From positions 25,436 to 89,435 of the forward strand of contig JBEKTQ010000015.1 in assembly GCA_049515895.1 (NCBI GenBank): a stretch of DNA of 64,000 nucleotides, written 5' to 3'. Position numbers and translations under genes: made by a program. Below the pieces are notes generated by a model. It saw nothing but the letters and a program-made list of their open reading frames with translations, was not told the origin of the DNA and searched no databases. This DNA comes from Candidatus Bathyarchaeia archaeon. Its GTDB lineage: Archaea > Thermoproteota > Bathyarchaeia > Bathyarchaeales > Bathycorpusculaceae. How positions within the stretch are numbered: position 1 is the first letter of the stretch; the number at the start of each line of letters is the position of its first letter. Shown here piece after piece: positions 632 to 5,623 of this stretch.

Positions 632-1618
632 TTGAGCAGTTTTTTAGAGCGAGACGTTTTTATGAGCCAGAATAACTCCAGAAAAATTAGTTCCGAAGAC
701 CTTAAGCAGTTCGATGGGTCAAATGGAAAACCTTTATACGTTGTTTTCAAGGGCAAAATATACGACTTGACAACCAGCCAGCTTTGGCTTGAAGGCAAAC
801 ACATGGGCATGCACGGCAGAACCGACGATTTAACTGAAGCAATAAAAACCGCTCCGCATGGCGAAGACAACGTTTACAGATTCCCGATTGTCGGCGAAAT
901 TGCCGAAGCGGTTATGCAGGCTCCAGTTGCCACGCCTGCAGTGGAAAAGCCTGTTGAGCCCCAAGTTCAGCCCGTAATCGGCACTTCTCCCGCAGTCATG
1001 GAGAGACGCACGTTCCTAAAGCTGGCAGCGGCGGCGGGAGGAGCAATAACGATCGCGGCACTGTTTTCAACCCTAAAAGCTGGAACTTTTGTGCCACCGC
1101 CGACCGCAACAGCAGCTTGGCCTGTGGTCACCGTTACAAACATAGGTAAGTTGACAAATCTCACACCAATAGTGTTCTATTACCCTTTAACCAGCACACC
1201 GAATTACCTTGTTAAGTTAGGGGTGGCAGCCACAGGTGGCATCGGACCTGAAAAAGACATAGTGGCCTTCAGCGCGATTTGCCAGCACTTGGGATGCGAG
1301 TACGGTTTCGTGGCTCCAGGCGGCTCACCACCCTGCAACTCCGCTTATAAGGTGGCTATTCCTATGGGCTACTGCTGCTGCCACGGCTCACAGTACGATT
1401 TCGTTCGTGGCGCGAAGGTGATTGGAGGCCCAGCTCCACGACCTGTGCCTATGGTTCAACTACAACTGAATTCAGCAACAGGAGATATAACCGCTGTTGG
1501 GATGCAGTCGCCAACGATTTTTGGGCATGGGCCGCCTGGAACCATGGATCCCGCGTTGGTTATGCAGTATGATTTGCAGGGTGGAGATTTAGTGACGCAA
1601 TCCACTGTTTTGGGATGA
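632..1618 (+). CDS. Fusion: cytochrome b5-like heme domain + internal twin-arginine anchor + Rieske [2Fe-2S] domain (start may be ATG 662)
   Basis: N-term FDGSNGKPLYVVFKGKIYDLT...HMGMH...DLT...APHG (Cyt-b5-like); Pro-rich linker; MERRTFLK + hydrophobic helix; Rieske boxes CQHLGC and CCCHGSQYD. Confidence 0.9.
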   Translation: MSSFLERDVFMSQNNSRKISSEDLKQFDGSNGKPLYVVFKGKIYDLTTSQLWLEGKHMGMHGRTDDLTEAIKTAPHGEDNVYRFPIVGEIAEAVMQAPVATPAVEKPVEPQVQPVIGTSPAVMERRTFLKLAAAAGGAITIAALFSTLKAGTFVPPPTATAAWPVVTVTNIGKLTNLTPIVFYYPLTSTPNYLVKLGVAATGGIGPEKDIVAFSAICQHLGCEYGFVAPGGSPPCNSAYKVAIPMGYCCCHGSQYDFVRGAKVIGGPAPRPVPMVQLQLNSATGDITAVGMQSPTIFGHGPPGTMDPALVMQYDLQGGDLVTQSTVLG

Positions 1619-1619
1619 C

Positions 1620-3143
1620 TTGATTATGTCTGAAGAAATTGAGAAGAAGAATGCTTATGACAAACTTGTCGACTGGTTTGACGTGAAGTTCGGCTTCGCT
1701 AAGACTCCGCTTAAGCCGATTCCAGACTTTATGATGAACCCGATTTATTGGCTTGGCTTGCTGTTAGCGGTGACTTTCGGCTTGCAGGCTTTAACCGGGA
1801 TCTTCATGCTTCTCTACTACGTCCCCACGCCTGCCCAAGCCTTCTCGTCGACAGCATCGATTATCAGTTCGGTGCCTCTTGGCTCGCTTGTTGAAACCTT
1901 CCACCTGTACACCGCCTACGCCATGATTATCTTAATGTTTTTGCATTTGGTCCGCAACTTTTTCGGCAGCGCACATAAAGGCAACAGGGATTTGATGTGG
2001 CTTGTCGGAATCGTATTAGCCGTCGTGGTGATTAGCTTCGGCGTGACAGGGTACCTTTTGCCGTGGACGGTGATTTCTAAGTCTGCAAGCGACGTCGCCA
2101 TCGGATTCCTAAACTTCTTCCCGGTTGGAATTGCAAACCTGGGAAAGTTCGTGGCGGTAGGCTCCGGCAGCGATGCATCGGAGTTGACAACTTTCCTTCA
2201 CATCCACACCGTTTTCCTTCCATTGGCGTTGATCGGGCTTTTAGGGTTGAAGATTTACATGTACGAGGTCCACGGCCCAATGTATGTGCCAGCATACGGG
2301 AAACCTGGAAAAGGCAAGTACAATAATTGGTTCCCAAAAATCTTCCTCTACTTTGTCATGCTTGCAAGCGCTTACGTGGCGATTTTGCTGGCTGCATCTT
2401 CTCTTTTCCCGCTTTCCTTGCCGCCTGCATACTCCGCGGCCACAGCCGGTGCCTACGTCGTCCAGCCTGATTGGTATCTGCTTTGGGTTTATCAACTCTT
2501 GAAAATCCAAGTTTTTGAAGGACCCGCAGCAGCTTACTTGATAGCTGCGCTGATTGCTTTCGGAGTGCTTCTTTTCCTTATGCCTTTCTACGACCGAAGC
2601 AAACGAAGAAACATCAGCCAAAGACCAGTCTACACTACAATCGGCTCGGTGCTAATAATTGAGCTTATTACGCTAACCATTTGGGGATACTTGACTCCTG
2701 GAATAATAATCCCAGACTACCAAGCCGTTTTGGTTTTAGGCGGAGTAGCTGTCGCAACTATCGCTGTGATATGGGCCGTTTATAGAATTAGACGAAAAAC
2801 AAACGCAGCATCTATGCTGCCCGCGCAATCGACCACTAACTCCCTCTCAACCAACTCATCTGGAACGAGTCCTGCCTCCATAGTGCAGGCATCTGCTCAA
2901 CCTAAGAAACAAAGGGTCAAGCTAGCTGGTCAGAGCCTATTCAATCCGTTCACTGCTGTCTTCGCAATTTTCCTTGCGGTTGCATCAGTTTCTTTAGCAT
3001 CAGCCGTAAACATGCTACCCACCATCTTGGCGAACGGACCGTTTTTTGCCTTGGCTCTGAGCGCTTTTGCCGTTTCGTCTTTTTTCATGTGTCGGATGCT
3101 TCGGAAGTTTGTTTTATCGTATGAGGGAGCGGTGGCTAAATAA
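1620..3143 (+). CDS. Cytochrome b of a Rieske/cyt b complex (unsplit, extra C-terminal TM helices)
   Basis: Q-LTG-F-L-YY-P, helix B H-x13-H, TGYLLPW, Qo motif PDWY, PFYDR; directly follows the Rieske gene. Confidence 0.92.
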   Translation: MIMSEEIEKKNAYDKLVDWFDVKFGFAKTPLKPIPDFMMNPIYWLGLLLAVTFGLQALTGIFMLLYYVPTPAQAFSSTASIISSVPLGSLVETFHLYTAYAMIILMFLHLVRNFFGSAHKGNRDLMWLVGIVLAVVVISFGVTGYLLPWTVISKSASDVAIGFLNFFPVGIANLGKFVAVGSGSDASELTTFLHIHTVFLPLALIGLLGLKIYMYEVHGPMYVPAYGKPGKGKYNNWFPKIFLYFVMLASAYVAILLAASSLFPLSLPPAYSAATAGAYVVQPDWYLLWVYQLLKIQVFEGPAAAYLIAALIAFGVLLFLMPFYDRSKRRNISQRPVYTTIGSVLIIELITLTIWGYLTPGIIIPDYQAVLVLGGVAVATIAVIWAVYRIRRKTNAASMLPAQSTTNSLSTNSSGTSPASIVQASAQPKKQRVKLAGQSLFNPFTAVFAIFLAVASVSLASAVNMLPTILANGPFFALALSAFAVSSFFMCRMLRKFVLSYEGAVAK

Positions 3144-3796
3144 TGAAGCGTGACTTTGACTCTTTGCGTGTCACTGCCTATTTCCTTTTGGTTTTTCTAA
3201 TTGTTGTTGGAGTGGCAGTTTGGCTTTTGAACCTAATCAGTCAACAAAGGATTTTCGGTTTCTTGATGGGCGCTGAATTCGTTGCGTTCGCCATGCTCGT
3301 CTACCTTTTTTACATGGAAGACCCCGTAGCCGCCAAGAAAATATTATTCTCGGGGTTCGTTGCCTTAGGAATCCTAGTTGTATTAGCGGCTGCCGTTTTA
3401 GGAGGCATTGGTACACCTGCGACGTTGCCCAAACCCAATGTCTCAGTAACCCTCTACGCGGGGGAAGTTTCTCTTACACAGTACGGGTTCGGCAACGACG
3501 CAATCTCCATAACTTCGCCGGGTCCGACTTTAACCTTCACCGTTGGCGATGTTGTGAACATGACCGTTTTCAACGCGGGAACCATGCCTCATAATTGGGC
3601 GCTAGTCGCTTCCAAGGATACCTCAGGCAAAGTTCTGTTCGGCGCAGTAATCGACAGCGGTCAAGTCCCCATACCGCCTAACGAAACAGCATCGGTTGTT
3701 TTTAGAGTCACAAAATCGGGGAACTACTTCTACATTTGTCAGGTTGCGGGTCACGTTCAGTCAGGCATGTGGGGTAATGTGGTAGTGAATCCGTGA
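3143..3796 (+). CDS. Membrane-anchored blue copper protein (sulfocyanin/rusticyanin-like cupredoxin)
   Basis: Three N-terminal hydrophobic segments; PGPTL, type-1 Cu ligands HNW ... YICQVAGHVQSGM (H, C, H, M); TAATG overlap with cyt b. Confidence 0.88.
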   Translation: MKRDFDSLRVTAYFLLVFLIVVGVAVWLLNLISQQRIFGFLMGAEFVAFAMLVYLFYMEDPVAAKKILFSGFVALGILVVLAAAVLGGIGTPATLPKPNVSVTLYAGEVSLTQYGFGNDAISITSPGPTLTFTVGDVVNMTVFNAGTMPHNWALVASKDTSGKVLFGAVIDSGQVPIPPNETASVVFRVTKSGNYFYICQVAGHVQSGMWGNVVVNP

Positions 3797-4578
3797 CACA
3801 AAAAATCGCTGAAGAATTTTCTGCCTCGTGCCTATTTTTCTTTGCAAGCTTGCTCACTGGCCTAGTAAGCGTCATGGCGTTGAGTTTTGTTTGGGCAAAA
3901 CAAAGAGCCGAAAAGCAACTTGAACCCCAAAAAACAGCGGGTTTCCTTGCCAATGAGCAAAGAGCACTGAATTTTTACAAAATATTTTCCTTTGCCTACG
4001 ACATTTTGAACCCGTACCTGTATACTGATGCCATGCGCAGCGAAATTGTAAATCAAATCGAAAACGGCGCAAACCAGCGGGTGCTTGACGTCGGATGCGG
4101 AACAGGCTACACCACGTCAGGAGTTTTGAAGCGGAAAGACGTTTCGGAGGTTGTCGGTTTGGACATGAATCCCGTACAACTAAAAAGAGCCGTCAAGAAC
4201 CTGCACTCAGAAAAGGGGAGAACGCTTATTTCAAGAGGCGACGCGGACAACTTGCCGTTCATCGACTCGTCTTTCGACGCGGTAATTTCTGTTGGAGCCG
4301 TCGAGTATTTTCAAGACCCTGAAAAAACGGTGAAAGAGCTGACTAGGGTCGCAAGACCTGGTGGAACCGTGATTGTGGGCGGTCCTGAATCGAGATGGTT
4401 CAGCAAGTTTGCTTTAAACAGGGTTTTCTATACGCCCTCACCCGAGGAAATGGAGAGTATTTTCGGCAAAGCGGACCTTGTCAGGGTGAAATCCCACTTG
4501 ACGGGCGTGAAAACTTTTTTCGGAACAAACAAATACGTCGTGTTTGCAGTAGGGAAGAAACCAGAAAGCCCACGGTGA
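3793..4578 (+). CDS. SAM-dependent methyltransferase, UbiE/MenG/VTE3-like (probable quinone ring methylase)
   Basis: VLDVGCGTG motif I, GDADNLPF-D-SFDAV, LTRVARPGG; GTGA overlap with cupredoxin; next to menA. Confidence 0.75.
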   Translation: MTQKIAEEFSASCLFFFASLLTGLVSVMALSFVWAKQRAEKQLEPQKTAGFLANEQRALNFYKIFSFAYDILNPYLYTDAMRSEIVNQIENGANQRVLDVGCGTGYTTSGVLKRKDVSEVVGLDMNPVQLKRAVKNLHSEKGRTLISRGDADNLPFIDSSFDAVISVGAVEYFQDPEKTVKELTRVARPGGTVIVGGPESRWFSKFALNRVFYTPSPEEMESIFGKADLVRVKSHLTGVKTFFGTNKYVVFAVGKKPESPR

Positions 4579-4591
4579 AAGGCAGCGAAAC

Positions 4592-5623
4592 TTAAGCTCT
4601 TTTTCTTGTATTAAGCAGTGTCCAAGCTACCGGGGCATAAGCAGCCACCAACACCCCCAAGATGTAGGCGAGTTGAACTGGGTTGGCCATGTTCAAGATC
4701 CCTGCGACTGAGTAGCCTGCGATTAAACCGAAGCTGGTGACGCTGTGTGCCACTATCATATCGAGGTTAGCGGGAGCCATCAGCCGCGGGTTATCTTTAT
4801 GCGCCCGAACGACCCTGATCGAGCGGATCACGAGGGGCAGTGAGAGCAAAGCGAAAAGTGTGTAGAGCGGTATGATGCCCAGCAAAGCGGAAGCAACGAT
4901 TATGGCGTAAGTGCATATCCAACTCGCCACGTAAAGTTTGACGCCTGCCTCTTTGCCGTACCTTGCGACAAGCGTGAGTTTCCCGGCAGCCGTGTCCTCT
5001 GCGATATCGGGAATCTCGTTTATCACAATCATCGAGAACAGCATTACCCCCAAAGGCAAAGTCGCCAAAAACGCCTGCAGGGTCAGGGTTTGTGCTTGAA
5101 CGTAAAAGGCGCCTAAACCTATTATTGAGCCAAAATTCACCAGTAGGGCAAGCTCGCCCAGCCCGTGGTGGCTGAAGCTTATGGGTGGAGCGGTGTAGAA
5201 GACAGCGCAAAATACGCCGAATACCCCGAATGCCAAGATAGGTAAGCCCCGGGTTAACGTTAGGTATAACCCCACAGCCAAAGTGACTAGGTAGCAGAGC
5301 GTGAAAGCTTTAAACATGCTCCTAGGCGCCAGAAGCCCGTTGCTCAGGGTCCCGCTGCCGCCCGAATACGGGTTCTTCTCGCCCGGCCCAAGCGTGTCCA
5401 CGCTGTGCTTGTAGTCGAAGTAGTCGTCGGTCATGTTTAAGCCGATGTGATTGATGATAATGGCAACGAGCACAAGCAGAAAATAAAGCGGGGAAAACCC
5501 ACTTTTAGTTGCCCAGCTAACTAAGCCGCCTAGGACAGCGGGAAAGATGCTGGGAGGAACAAAGTGGTAGCGGAAGGCGAGCCACCAGACTTTCGCTTTA
5601 CTTGTTTTAGGTATGAACGTCAT
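4592..5623 (-). CDS. menA: 1,4-dihydroxy-2-naphthoate prenyltransferase (UbiA superfamily)
   Basis: NMTDDYFDYKHSVD, GGSG, FYTAPP, INEIPDIAEDTAAGKLTL motifs; multi-TM. Confidence 0.88.
   Translation of the reverse strand: MTFIPKTSKAKVWWLAFRYHFVPPSIFPAVLGGLVSWATKSGFSPLYFLLVLVAIIINHIGLNMTDDYFDYKHSVDTLGPGEKNPYSGGSGTLSNGLLAPRSMFKAFTLCYLVTLAVGLYLTLTRGLPILAFGVFGVFCAVFYTAPPISFSHHGLGELALLVNFGSIIGLGAFYVQAQTLTLQAFLATLPLGVMLFSMIVINEIPDIAEDTAAGKLTLVARYGKEAGVKLYVASWICTYAIIVASALLGIIPLYTLFALLSLPLVIRSIRVVRAHKDNPRLMAPANLDMIVAHSVTSFGLIAGYSVAGILNMANPVQLAYILGVLVAAYAPVAWTLLNTRKRA

Follow-up and report, generated by a model that had tools for sequence, protein, structure and literature searches.

A Rieske protein with a predicted heme-binding cytochrome b5M-type domain ahead of an internal twin-arginine signal in Bathyarchaeia-labelled archaea

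The stretch analysed here, called the window throughout, comprises 64,000 nucleotides of contig JBEKTQ010000015.1 (positions 25,436 to 89,435; assembly GCA_049515895.1, Candidatus Bathyarchaeia archaeon). It carries a gene for a Rieske iron-sulfur protein with an additional N-terminal domain, followed by a gene for cytochrome b. The stop-free frame of the Rieske gene runs from 632 to 1618 on the forward strand and encodes 328 amino acids (aa) if counted from TTG 632. In the homologs the protein begins where ATG 662 lies, which gives a length of 318 aa, and residues are numbered from this codon. An earlier note on this DNA had described a single frame with a cytochrome b5-like domain, a linker and an RRTFLK motif from about residue 125. 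This description was borne out by Pfam, by NCBIfam and by the homologs; the motif occupies residues 125–130 counted from TTG 632 and 115–120 counted from ATG 662. The parts of the gene and the neighbouring genes are listed in Table 1.

Table 1. The fused Rieske gene, its parts and the genes next to it, in window coordinates.
Feature	Position	Strand	Basis or remark
Whole gene: cytb5M domain, tether, internal Tat signal anchor, Rieske head	662..1618	+	Homolog starts
Cytochrome b5M-type heme domain (predicted), residues 8-82	683..907	+	Pfam Cyt-b5 and ungapped 6VZ6/6NZX match
His47 codon CAC, predicted axial heme ligand	800..802	+	Equals H42 in the 6VZ6 paper; alignment
His66 codon CAT, predicted second axial heme ligand	857..859	+	Equals H61 in the 6VZ6 paper
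Pro/Ala/Gln-rich tether, residues 83-112	908..997	+	AF2 pLDDT, identity, composition
Internal ATG, Met113	998..1000	+	Probably a remnant of the ancestral start codon; unfused relatives align from about there
RRTFLK (115-120) and single membrane helix (115-139)	1004..1078	+	TIGR01409, AF2 helix, hydropathy
Predicted exported Rieske [2Fe-2S] head, residues 150-318	1109..1615	+	Pfam Rieske, AF2, closest structures
Cluster-binding box I, Cys207-x-His209-x-Gly-Cys212	1280..1297	+	Sequence
Cluster-binding box II, Cys238-Cys239-Cys240-His241	1373..1384	+	Sequence
Cytochrome b, 507 aa, archaeal SoxC-like	1620..3143	+	Pfam Cytochrome_B 100.7 bits; NCBIfam SoxC 211.5 bits, below cut-off
Membrane-anchored cupredoxin (sulfocyanin/plastocyanin-like)	3143..3796	+	Pfam SoxE, Copper-bind, Cu-oxidase
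UbiE/MenG-like methyltransferase	3793..4578	+	Below curated cut-offs; syntenic in 6/8 fused loci
MenA-like (UbiA family) prenyltransferase	4592..5623	-	Best 146.9 bits, below cut-off; 6/8 fused loci

An AlphaFold2 (AF2) model based on a 25-sequence alignment divides the protein into four parts: a small alpha/beta domain (residues 7–80), a segment without structure (83–114), a helix (115–139) and a beta-rich Rieske head (150–285). The head was predicted with confidence (per-residue confidence, pLDDT, of 75–95), and the unstructured tether had values of 30–40.

Of 8000 candidates scored in a word-indexed protein search, 618 were relatives at E ≤ 0.001. The best 120 were realigned, and homolog counts below refer to these unless stated otherwise. 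Of these, 116 extend over N-terminal domain, tether, RR motif and Rieske head alike. Three others have 268–272 aa and lie on contigs of about 0.9–2 kb, and the last is a 206-aa gene call that begins at the internal Met and whose 90% cluster also holds a full-length member of 319 aa. Mean identity to the window protein was 62% in the heme domain, 28% in the tether and 75% both in the signal/helix segment and in the Rieske head. The homologs are thus fused, not consistently encoded by two genes, and the frame does not owe its length to a lost stop codon. The earlier note had pointed to sequencing reads as a check for such a loss. Contigs of the runs X1 and X2 match the window over 581–1800 with no differing letter or indel, but these runs may be the source of the assembly and do not count as an independent confirmation. 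Runs X3 and X4 lack coverage of 764–1071, and the tether is covered by X1 and X2 only.

The N-terminal domain belongs to the cytochrome b5 type named cytb5M. In a search of all PDB sequences, residues 9–80 align without gaps over 72–74 residues to 6VZ6 (E 8.3e-17) and 6NZX (E 1.9e-16), both of them crystal structures with heme bound. The 6VZ6 protein contains bound heme with H42 and H61 as axial ligands and contacts from S34 and H46 (10.1101/2021.11.30.470528). In the alignment these four residues correspond to H47, H66, S39 and H51 of the window protein, and each is invariant among the homologs that cover its position (H47 116/116, H66 119/119, S39 116/116, H51 119/119). Many homologs also carry a precomputed label for the Pfam Cyt-b5 family (PF00173). 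The ungapped match and the invariant axial His pair support the proposal of a heme-type b5 domain, and it is very probable from the sequence that the domain binds heme b. Its mean charge is −2.2.

The relatives of this domain were collected by a HMMER search with residues 1–90 among 1.84 billion cluster representatives, which gave 1498 relatives at E ≤ 0.001. When the best 149 were scanned with Pfam, 144 matched Cyt-b5; 18 additionally carried DUF2231, one carried CopD and one represented the Rieske fusion. Arrays with two to six b5M domains in tandem were frequent among the relatives, some with exported-looking leaders. The closest relative outside the fusion family is a b5M–DUF2231 protein (51% identity). 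According to the pertinent part of a 2015 comparative study (PMC5898192), Thermococcus barophilus has a DUF4405 membrane cytochrome b with a fused b5-like domain. Because of the fusions to DUF2231, CopD and DUF4405, the b5M family can be said to recur as a soluble module on membrane redox proteins.

In the b5M–DUF2231 fusions (P0170, P0212, P0209 and others), DUF2231 is a membrane domain with a conserved His-rich first helix, and the combination resembles a membrane redox module yet to be characterised. No DUF2231 was found in the genome from which the window stems. This genome has two free-standing b5M genes, one of which (L090:1486-2616, minus strand) lies directly downstream of a gene for an old-yellow-enzyme-like flavoprotein, a possible cytoplasmic reductase partner of b5M domains. 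Two sets of candidates from the searches were rejected. P0166 appeared as a second protein combining b5M and Tat with another C-terminal domain, but it is a singleton on a 905-base contig with a C-terminus that has no homolog, and is probably a broken copy of the fused Rieske gene. P0154, P0159, P0164, P0143 and P0138 are truncated or frame-shifted copies of the fusion and do not form a separate family.

The tether of about 31 residues is rich in Pro, Ala, Gln and Val. Over 117 sequences it contains 23% Pro, 14% Ala and 11% Gln, a composition typical of an extended, flexible arm. Despite the low identity of this segment, its length is kept at 26–34 residues in the homologs, with a mode of 31.

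The tether leads into a signal for twin-arginine translocation (Tat). The NCBIfam model TIGR01409 (Tat signal) matched residues 114–134 with 20.8 bits, above its cut-off of 16.7, and Pfam TAT_signal matched residues 113–131 with 19.2 bits against a cut-off of 22.7. The RR of the motif is invariant in all 120 homologs. A hydropathy scan found no hydrophobic 19-mer before residue 117; such 19-mers start at residues 117–122 only. Helix 115–139, directly behind the invariant RR, is the only segment long and hydrophobic enough to span a membrane, and positive charges (RR..K) precede it. TatC is encoded in the window genome (120.8 bits). The twin-arginine motif and the single anchoring helix are thus present as in bc-type Rieske proteins, but the motif is internal instead of N-terminal.

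Tat substrates have been divided into classes in the relevant sections of a recent review of this pathway (PMC13673990). Ordinary Rieske proteins with an N-terminal uncleaved signal anchor constitute Class III, the Streptomyces Rieske proteins with an internal signal behind Sec-inserted helices represent Class IV, and FecR, with a folded cis-side N-terminal domain, an internal uncleaved signal and an exported C-terminal domain, represents Class V. The window protein has a signal-less N-terminal domain and an internal RR followed by a hydrophobic stretch, and is encoded in a Tat-encoding genome, which are the sequence features of a Class V substrate. As it has this layout, an internal uncleaved signal together with a cytoplasmic heme domain is to be expected. 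Hydropathy, the RR motif, TatC and the Class V precedent all agree with the topology first proposed in the earlier note, and we think it highly likely that the heme domain is cytoplasmic and the Rieske head outside.

The Rieske head matched Pfam Rieske (PF00355) over residues 197–264 with 22.2 bits, above the cut-off of 20.3. Both cluster boxes are conserved including the disulfide cysteines: C207 and C212 were found in 120/120 homologs and H209 in 119/120, while C238, C240 and H241 were found in 120/120 each. The closest solved structures are AioB (E 8e-19, TM-score 0.8) and SoxF (PDB 1JM1, E 1e-18), and the best family-level matches of the C-terminal part are the arsenite oxidase small subunit and Sulfolobus SoxL2, both below cut-off. 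Many homologs carry the JGI name “arsenite oxidase small subunit”. We rejected an AioB identity in view of the missing AioA, the cytochrome b neighbour and the sub-cut-off equivalog. The AioB equivalog scored 77.7 against a cut-off of 95.65, and the model of the arsenite oxidase large subunit AioA (TIGR02693) gave 0 matches in the 100%-complete genome.

The distribution of the fusion was assessed on one-genome-per-species contigs, in which 512 stretches encode a relative; 80 loci were kept. Eight of these (L001–L008), from metagenome-assembled genomes (MAGs) with Bathyarchaeia or Bathyarchaeota titles, are fused and match from residues 1–7 onward. The other 72 match from residue 92 or later only. 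Most of them carry Nitrososphaerales/Nitrososphaerota (“Thaumarchaeota”) titles; others are Thermoplasmata or additional Bathyarchaeia-labelled MAGs. At none of the 72 loci was a b5 domain found within 6 kb of the unfused Rieske gene (best chance match E 0.16). Where the RR could be located in unfused loci, the first in-frame stop upstream leaves no more than about 10–90 codons before it, with L077 and L078 as exceptions. As the fusion recurs in 116 of the 120 best homologs and in 8 of the 80 species-representative loci, the architecture is, judged by these sequences, far beyond chance.

A maximum-likelihood tree of the Tat-plus-Rieske part was computed with 72 rows, after 9 of 81 were dropped for short or interrupted matches. 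The nine fused rows form one branch (support 98/97) nested among the 63 unfused rows, which is consistent with a single fusion event. Of 301 genomes sampled from the GTDB family, 15, belonging to 3 of 70 genera, had this type of Rieske gene, and it was fused in all 15; these are mostly larger genomes of the three genera. In the sample of the order, 2 of 151 genomes had the Rieske gene, and 33 further genomes had free-standing b5M genes only, with products of 78–208 aa (mostly about 80–115) and 36–50% identity.

The cytochrome b gene starts 2 bases after the Rieske stop codon, on the same strand. It adjoins the Rieske gene in 30 loci listed, and a downstream cytochrome b open reading frame was extracted in 71 of the 80 loci. 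Rieske, cytochrome b and cupredoxin genes are syntenic in all eight fused loci, and the cupredoxin is the likely electron acceptor of the Rieske head. The MenG-like and MenA-like neighbours, with scores below their cut-offs, suggest that a menaquinone-type quinone pathway travels with the complex.

In the window genome, 3.18 Mb in size with a completeness of 100% and a contamination of 4.87%, no further archaeal bc-type Rieske was found. Nine other Rieske matches are small soluble forms in frames of about 100–140 aa. In addition, contig C52 of the same genome (G000; L094:1-2064, ~2 kb) carries genes for a c-type cytochrome, a cytochrome b6-like protein and a bacterial-type Rieske of 152 aa; this contig probably represents contamination and lies outside the archaeal chain. 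One heme-copper oxidase (COX1) and a NuoH homolog are present. In the family sample COX1 was found in 13 of the 15 fusion genomes versus 31 of the 286 others, a comparison between kin genomes and hence not an independent test; COX1 is patchy in this Bathyarchaeia-labelled family (44/301 sampled genomes). Since the fused protein is the only archaeal bc-type Rieske in an oxidase-bearing genome, it is expected to do the normal Rieske job in an oxygen-linked chain. The class Bathyarchaeia is described in a published account as widespread in anoxic habitats, and the fusion marks a subset of peat and soil Bathyarchaeia-labelled archaea with an oxygen-respiring chain.

We propose the following account of how the protein arose and works. 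In one ancestor of the Bathyarchaeia-labelled lineage, a cytb5M-type domain would have been fused before the old start codon of the Rieske gene, so that the twin-arginine signal now lies inside the chain. The b5M domain would fold and take up heme in the cytoplasm. The Rieske head would gain its cluster there as well and would then be exported by Tat as a folded head, with the RR motif still acting as an uncleaved signal anchor. Helix 115–139 would pack against cytochrome b, as in other bc complexes, and the bis-His (His47/His66) heme domain would remain cytoplasmic at the end of its Pro-rich arm. The complex most likely oxidises a quinol, probably of menaquinol type, reduces the cupredoxin and feeds the heme-copper oxidase. 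On the cytoplasmic (N) face, the heme domain would act as a tethered one-electron carrier between a cytoplasmic partner and the N-side heme and quinone-reduction site of cytochrome b. This explanation as a whole, electron exchange with the complex included, is put forward tentatively, as something just short of an even bet.

The step that carries most of the doubt is the role of the heme domain. That it forms an electron port on the cytoplasmic face and exchanges electrons with the complex is a possibility we would rate somewhat below even. We favour it because the bis-His pair is strict, the domain is present 1:1 with the Rieske head beside cytochrome b, the tether length is conserved and b5M domains occur on membrane redox proteins. 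A weak hint in the same direction may come from the cytoplasmic D–E loop of cytochrome b (residues 214–243, window 2259–2348), which has a Lys-rich patch in all eight fused loci, set beside the negative mean charge of the b5M domain. The net charge of the loop is +2 to +4 in the eight fused loci versus −4 to +1 in 32 unfused loci. In total, 76 positions of cytochrome b are clade-specific and confounded by descent, and the charge of the D–E loop alone was kept. A predicted complex of b5M (residues 1–90), cytochrome b (1–405) and three hemes scored 0.08 and has no weight either way. A further step, in which the port would let a soluble cytoplasmic reductant feed or drain the N-side heme and quinone site in a donor-driven or bypass cycle without a separate dehydrogenase, is rather doubtful.

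A side observation concerns the N side of cytochrome b. Lys211 (window 2250–2252) is invariant in 40 of 40 archaeal cytochromes b (8 from fused and 32 from unfused loci). Its aligned counterpart in cytochrome b6 is the second His that ligates the N-side heme. His218 is kept in 39 of the 40. Lys211 is common to the fused and the unfused lineages and is therefore not an explanation of the fusion. Pintscher et al. describe an engineered H212K variant of bacterial bc1 as a functional His/Lys low-spin heme with raised potential, and state that a natural Lys ligand of a membrane-embedded heme was not known (PMC4807273). For Pyrobaculum, the pertinent passage of Kao and Hunte reports a cytochrome b without the second N-side His (PMC4122944).

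Several observations weigh against the electron port or against the parts on which it is built. Pfam Cyt-b5 matched residues 11–80 with 21.2 bits in an hmmscan of the protein, below the cut-off of 23.7; in the six-frame genome search the same family reached 24.1 bits, above it. The AF2 block means for the N-terminal domain are 46–73, which is moderate confidence. Several tandem-repeat b5M relatives (P0121 and P0124) have a hydrophobic or lipoprotein-like leader, so that the family is not confined to the cytoplasm. No specific feature ties the domain to heme bH, and the tether could extend to other partners in the membrane or the cytoplasm. With Lys instead of His at the N-side ligand position, the N-side chemistry itself is uncertain. 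Finally, the contrast in D–E loop charge comes from a single clade and is confounded by descent.

The alternative that survives best keeps the same layout and gives the heme domain a role in assembly or regulation, in which it would act as a sensor of heme or of redox state, keep heme ready for insertion into cytochrome b or control the Tat export of the Rieske head. Heme b of cytochrome b would be inserted from the cytoplasmic side, where the domain is predicted to sit, and the eukaryotic MAPR relatives of cytb5M are mainly heme-dependent regulators (10.1101/2021.11.30.470528). The cis-side domain of FecR likewise serves signalling, as the section on this protein in PMC13673990 describes. Both axial His residues are strictly kept, however, which suits a six-coordinate electron carrier better than a heme-releasing donor, and unfused relatives build the same complex without such a domain. 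We regard this role as unlikely but worth keeping in mind.

Somewhat less likely still is a b5M domain that is only anchored by the Rieske helix and serves other enzymes, for example in quinone biosynthesis or lipid modification, much like microsomal cytochrome b5. The MenA-like and MenG-like genes adjoin the operon, with synteny across most fused loci; the long tether is flexible; and the genome contains free b5M genes, one of them beside the flavoprotein gene mentioned above. For such a purpose a plain tail anchor would be simpler than a fusion that sets the domain 1:1 with the Rieske protein beside cytochrome b, and no b5-dependent enzyme was identified in the operon.

The gene could also give two products, through a start at ATG 998 or through cleavage of the tether, with a conventional Rieske protein as one product and an N-terminal domain that is separate or idle. 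A short isoform from ATG 998 had been suggested in the earlier note. This ATG exists and encodes Met113, exactly where unfused relatives begin. Because residue 113 is Met in only 81 of the 120 fused homologs (Leu in 19, Ile in 18, Val in 1 and Ala in 1), a conserved short isoform is unlikely and the suggestion is weakened; Met113 is probably a leftover of the ancestral start codon, as far as the alignment can tell. The closest fused relative, L008 (G353; ~92% identity), reads as two overlapping frames split inside the tether (L008:6230-6360). A run of seven A marks the split point, as is usual for sequencing indels, and the split was seen once, in one of eight fused loci and one of 15 family genomes; it is most likely such an indel. 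As the tether length is conserved and the frame is open in 116 of the 120 homologs as well, two products are improbable.

We consider it very improbable that the N-terminal domain also lies outside the cell, or that the signal is cleaved to release a soluble Rieske head. Some b5M relatives appear to be exported (P0121 and P0124), but the window protein has no hydrophobic segment before residue 115 and has positive charges (RR..K) before the helix. The helix itself shows 75% conservation and includes invariant residues, as would be expected where subunits meet, and bc-type Rieske proteins retain their signal anchor, according to the section on them in PMC13673990. That the fusion is an artefact of a lost stop, of a frameshift or of chimeric assembly has next to no probability: nothing was found in favour of this, and the fusion is present in 116 of 120 homologs drawn from several databases, in eight species-representative MAGs and in 15 of 301 family genomes. 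The X1 and X2 contigs also agree letter for letter, possible assembly source though they are.

Taken together, these points leave a fused protein whose heme domain probably faces the cytoplasm and may serve as an electron port. If the domain exchanges electrons, this would change how a Rieske/cytochrome b complex can be fed or relieved, and would give a direct handle on N-side chemistry in a Lys-bearing cytochrome b family. The port would then be an analogue, in archaea and with covalent wiring, of the electron input from the stromal side that has been proposed for cytochrome b6f, and the protein the first known Tat substrate with redox cofactors on both membrane faces. For Tat research the protein is predicted to be a naturally occurring substrate of Class V, a rare type, from an archaeon and to carry cofactors on either side of the membrane; it could be a useful test case for targeting and proofreading. 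We rate the interest for bioenergetics and Tat research as moderate to high.

In surveys of Rieske/cytochrome b complexes, additions on the outer (P) face are numerous, fused cytochromes c among them. The literature searched yielded no redox domain attached covalently to the Rieske subunit on its cytoplasmic side. The earlier note had not recognised the architecture as a described one, and this agrees with our search, in which no b5–Rieske fusion was found and which left most subscription journals outside its coverage. A look-up of the term “Rieske” in the preprint on cytb5M evolution gave no match, and PMC5600118 contained none of the terms looked up. In PMC11697101, cytochrome b5 and Rieske proteins appear only as soluble proteins separate from each other. 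The parts (a bc-type Rieske protein, cytb5M and the Class V Tat layout) are each known; it is their combination that was not found described.

By analogy only, the proposed port can be set beside eukaryotic sulfite oxidase, nitrate reductase and flavocytochrome b2, in which tethered b5 domains shuttle single electrons, and beside cytochrome b6f, in which stromal-side electron input at heme cn is an entry on the N side. These systems have no architectural homology to the window protein, and none of them carries a heme domain on the Rieske subunit.

Closer comparisons are found part by part. With the Class III bc-type Rieske proteins (Sulfolobus SoxF/SoxL, PetA and PetC), the window protein has in common the cluster boxes, the RR with a single helix, the exported head (here predicted) and the cytochrome b neighbour. 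It differs from them in that about 112 residues, a folded domain predicted to bind heme and a tether, precede the RR. AioB is the best sequence and fold match to the Rieske head, but the gene here adjoins cytochrome b, and no match was found in the genome for AioA, which is normally encoded next to AioB. The N-terminal domain corresponds to the solved cytb5M proteins of Methanococcoides burtonii (6VZ6) and of a Hadesarchaea archaeon (6NZX), whose axial His pair and the equivalents of Ser34 and His46 are kept. These proteins are free-standing and about 78 aa long, whereas here the domain is fused to the N-terminal side of a Rieske protein. FecR (Class V; Passmore 2020, cited in PMC13673990) shares with the window protein a folded N-terminal domain, an internal signal and a folded C-terminal domain. 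It is a bacterial anti-sigma regulator without cofactors, as far as the section on it goes, and the window protein is an archaeal respiratory subunit with redox cofactors predicted in both domains. The actinobacterial polytopic Rieske protein Sco2149/QcrA (Class IV, Sec plus Tat) also has an internal Tat motif; its N-terminal part consists, in the passages of PMC3471235 and PMC13673990 that treat it, of two extra Sec-inserted membrane helices and not of a soluble cofactor domain.

Another comparison comes from one of the unfused loci, in a Nitrososphaerota MAG (L078:5314-6618, plus strand), where a complete NarI-type (nitrate reductase gamma) domain (189.9 bits) is fused in front of the Rieske protein and the RR is again internal. 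This is a second, independent fusion that places a heme b module before the internal Tat motif in the same archaeal Rieske family. The NarI module is a membrane-integral diheme cytochrome, and its counterpart in the window protein is a soluble, tethered b5M domain.

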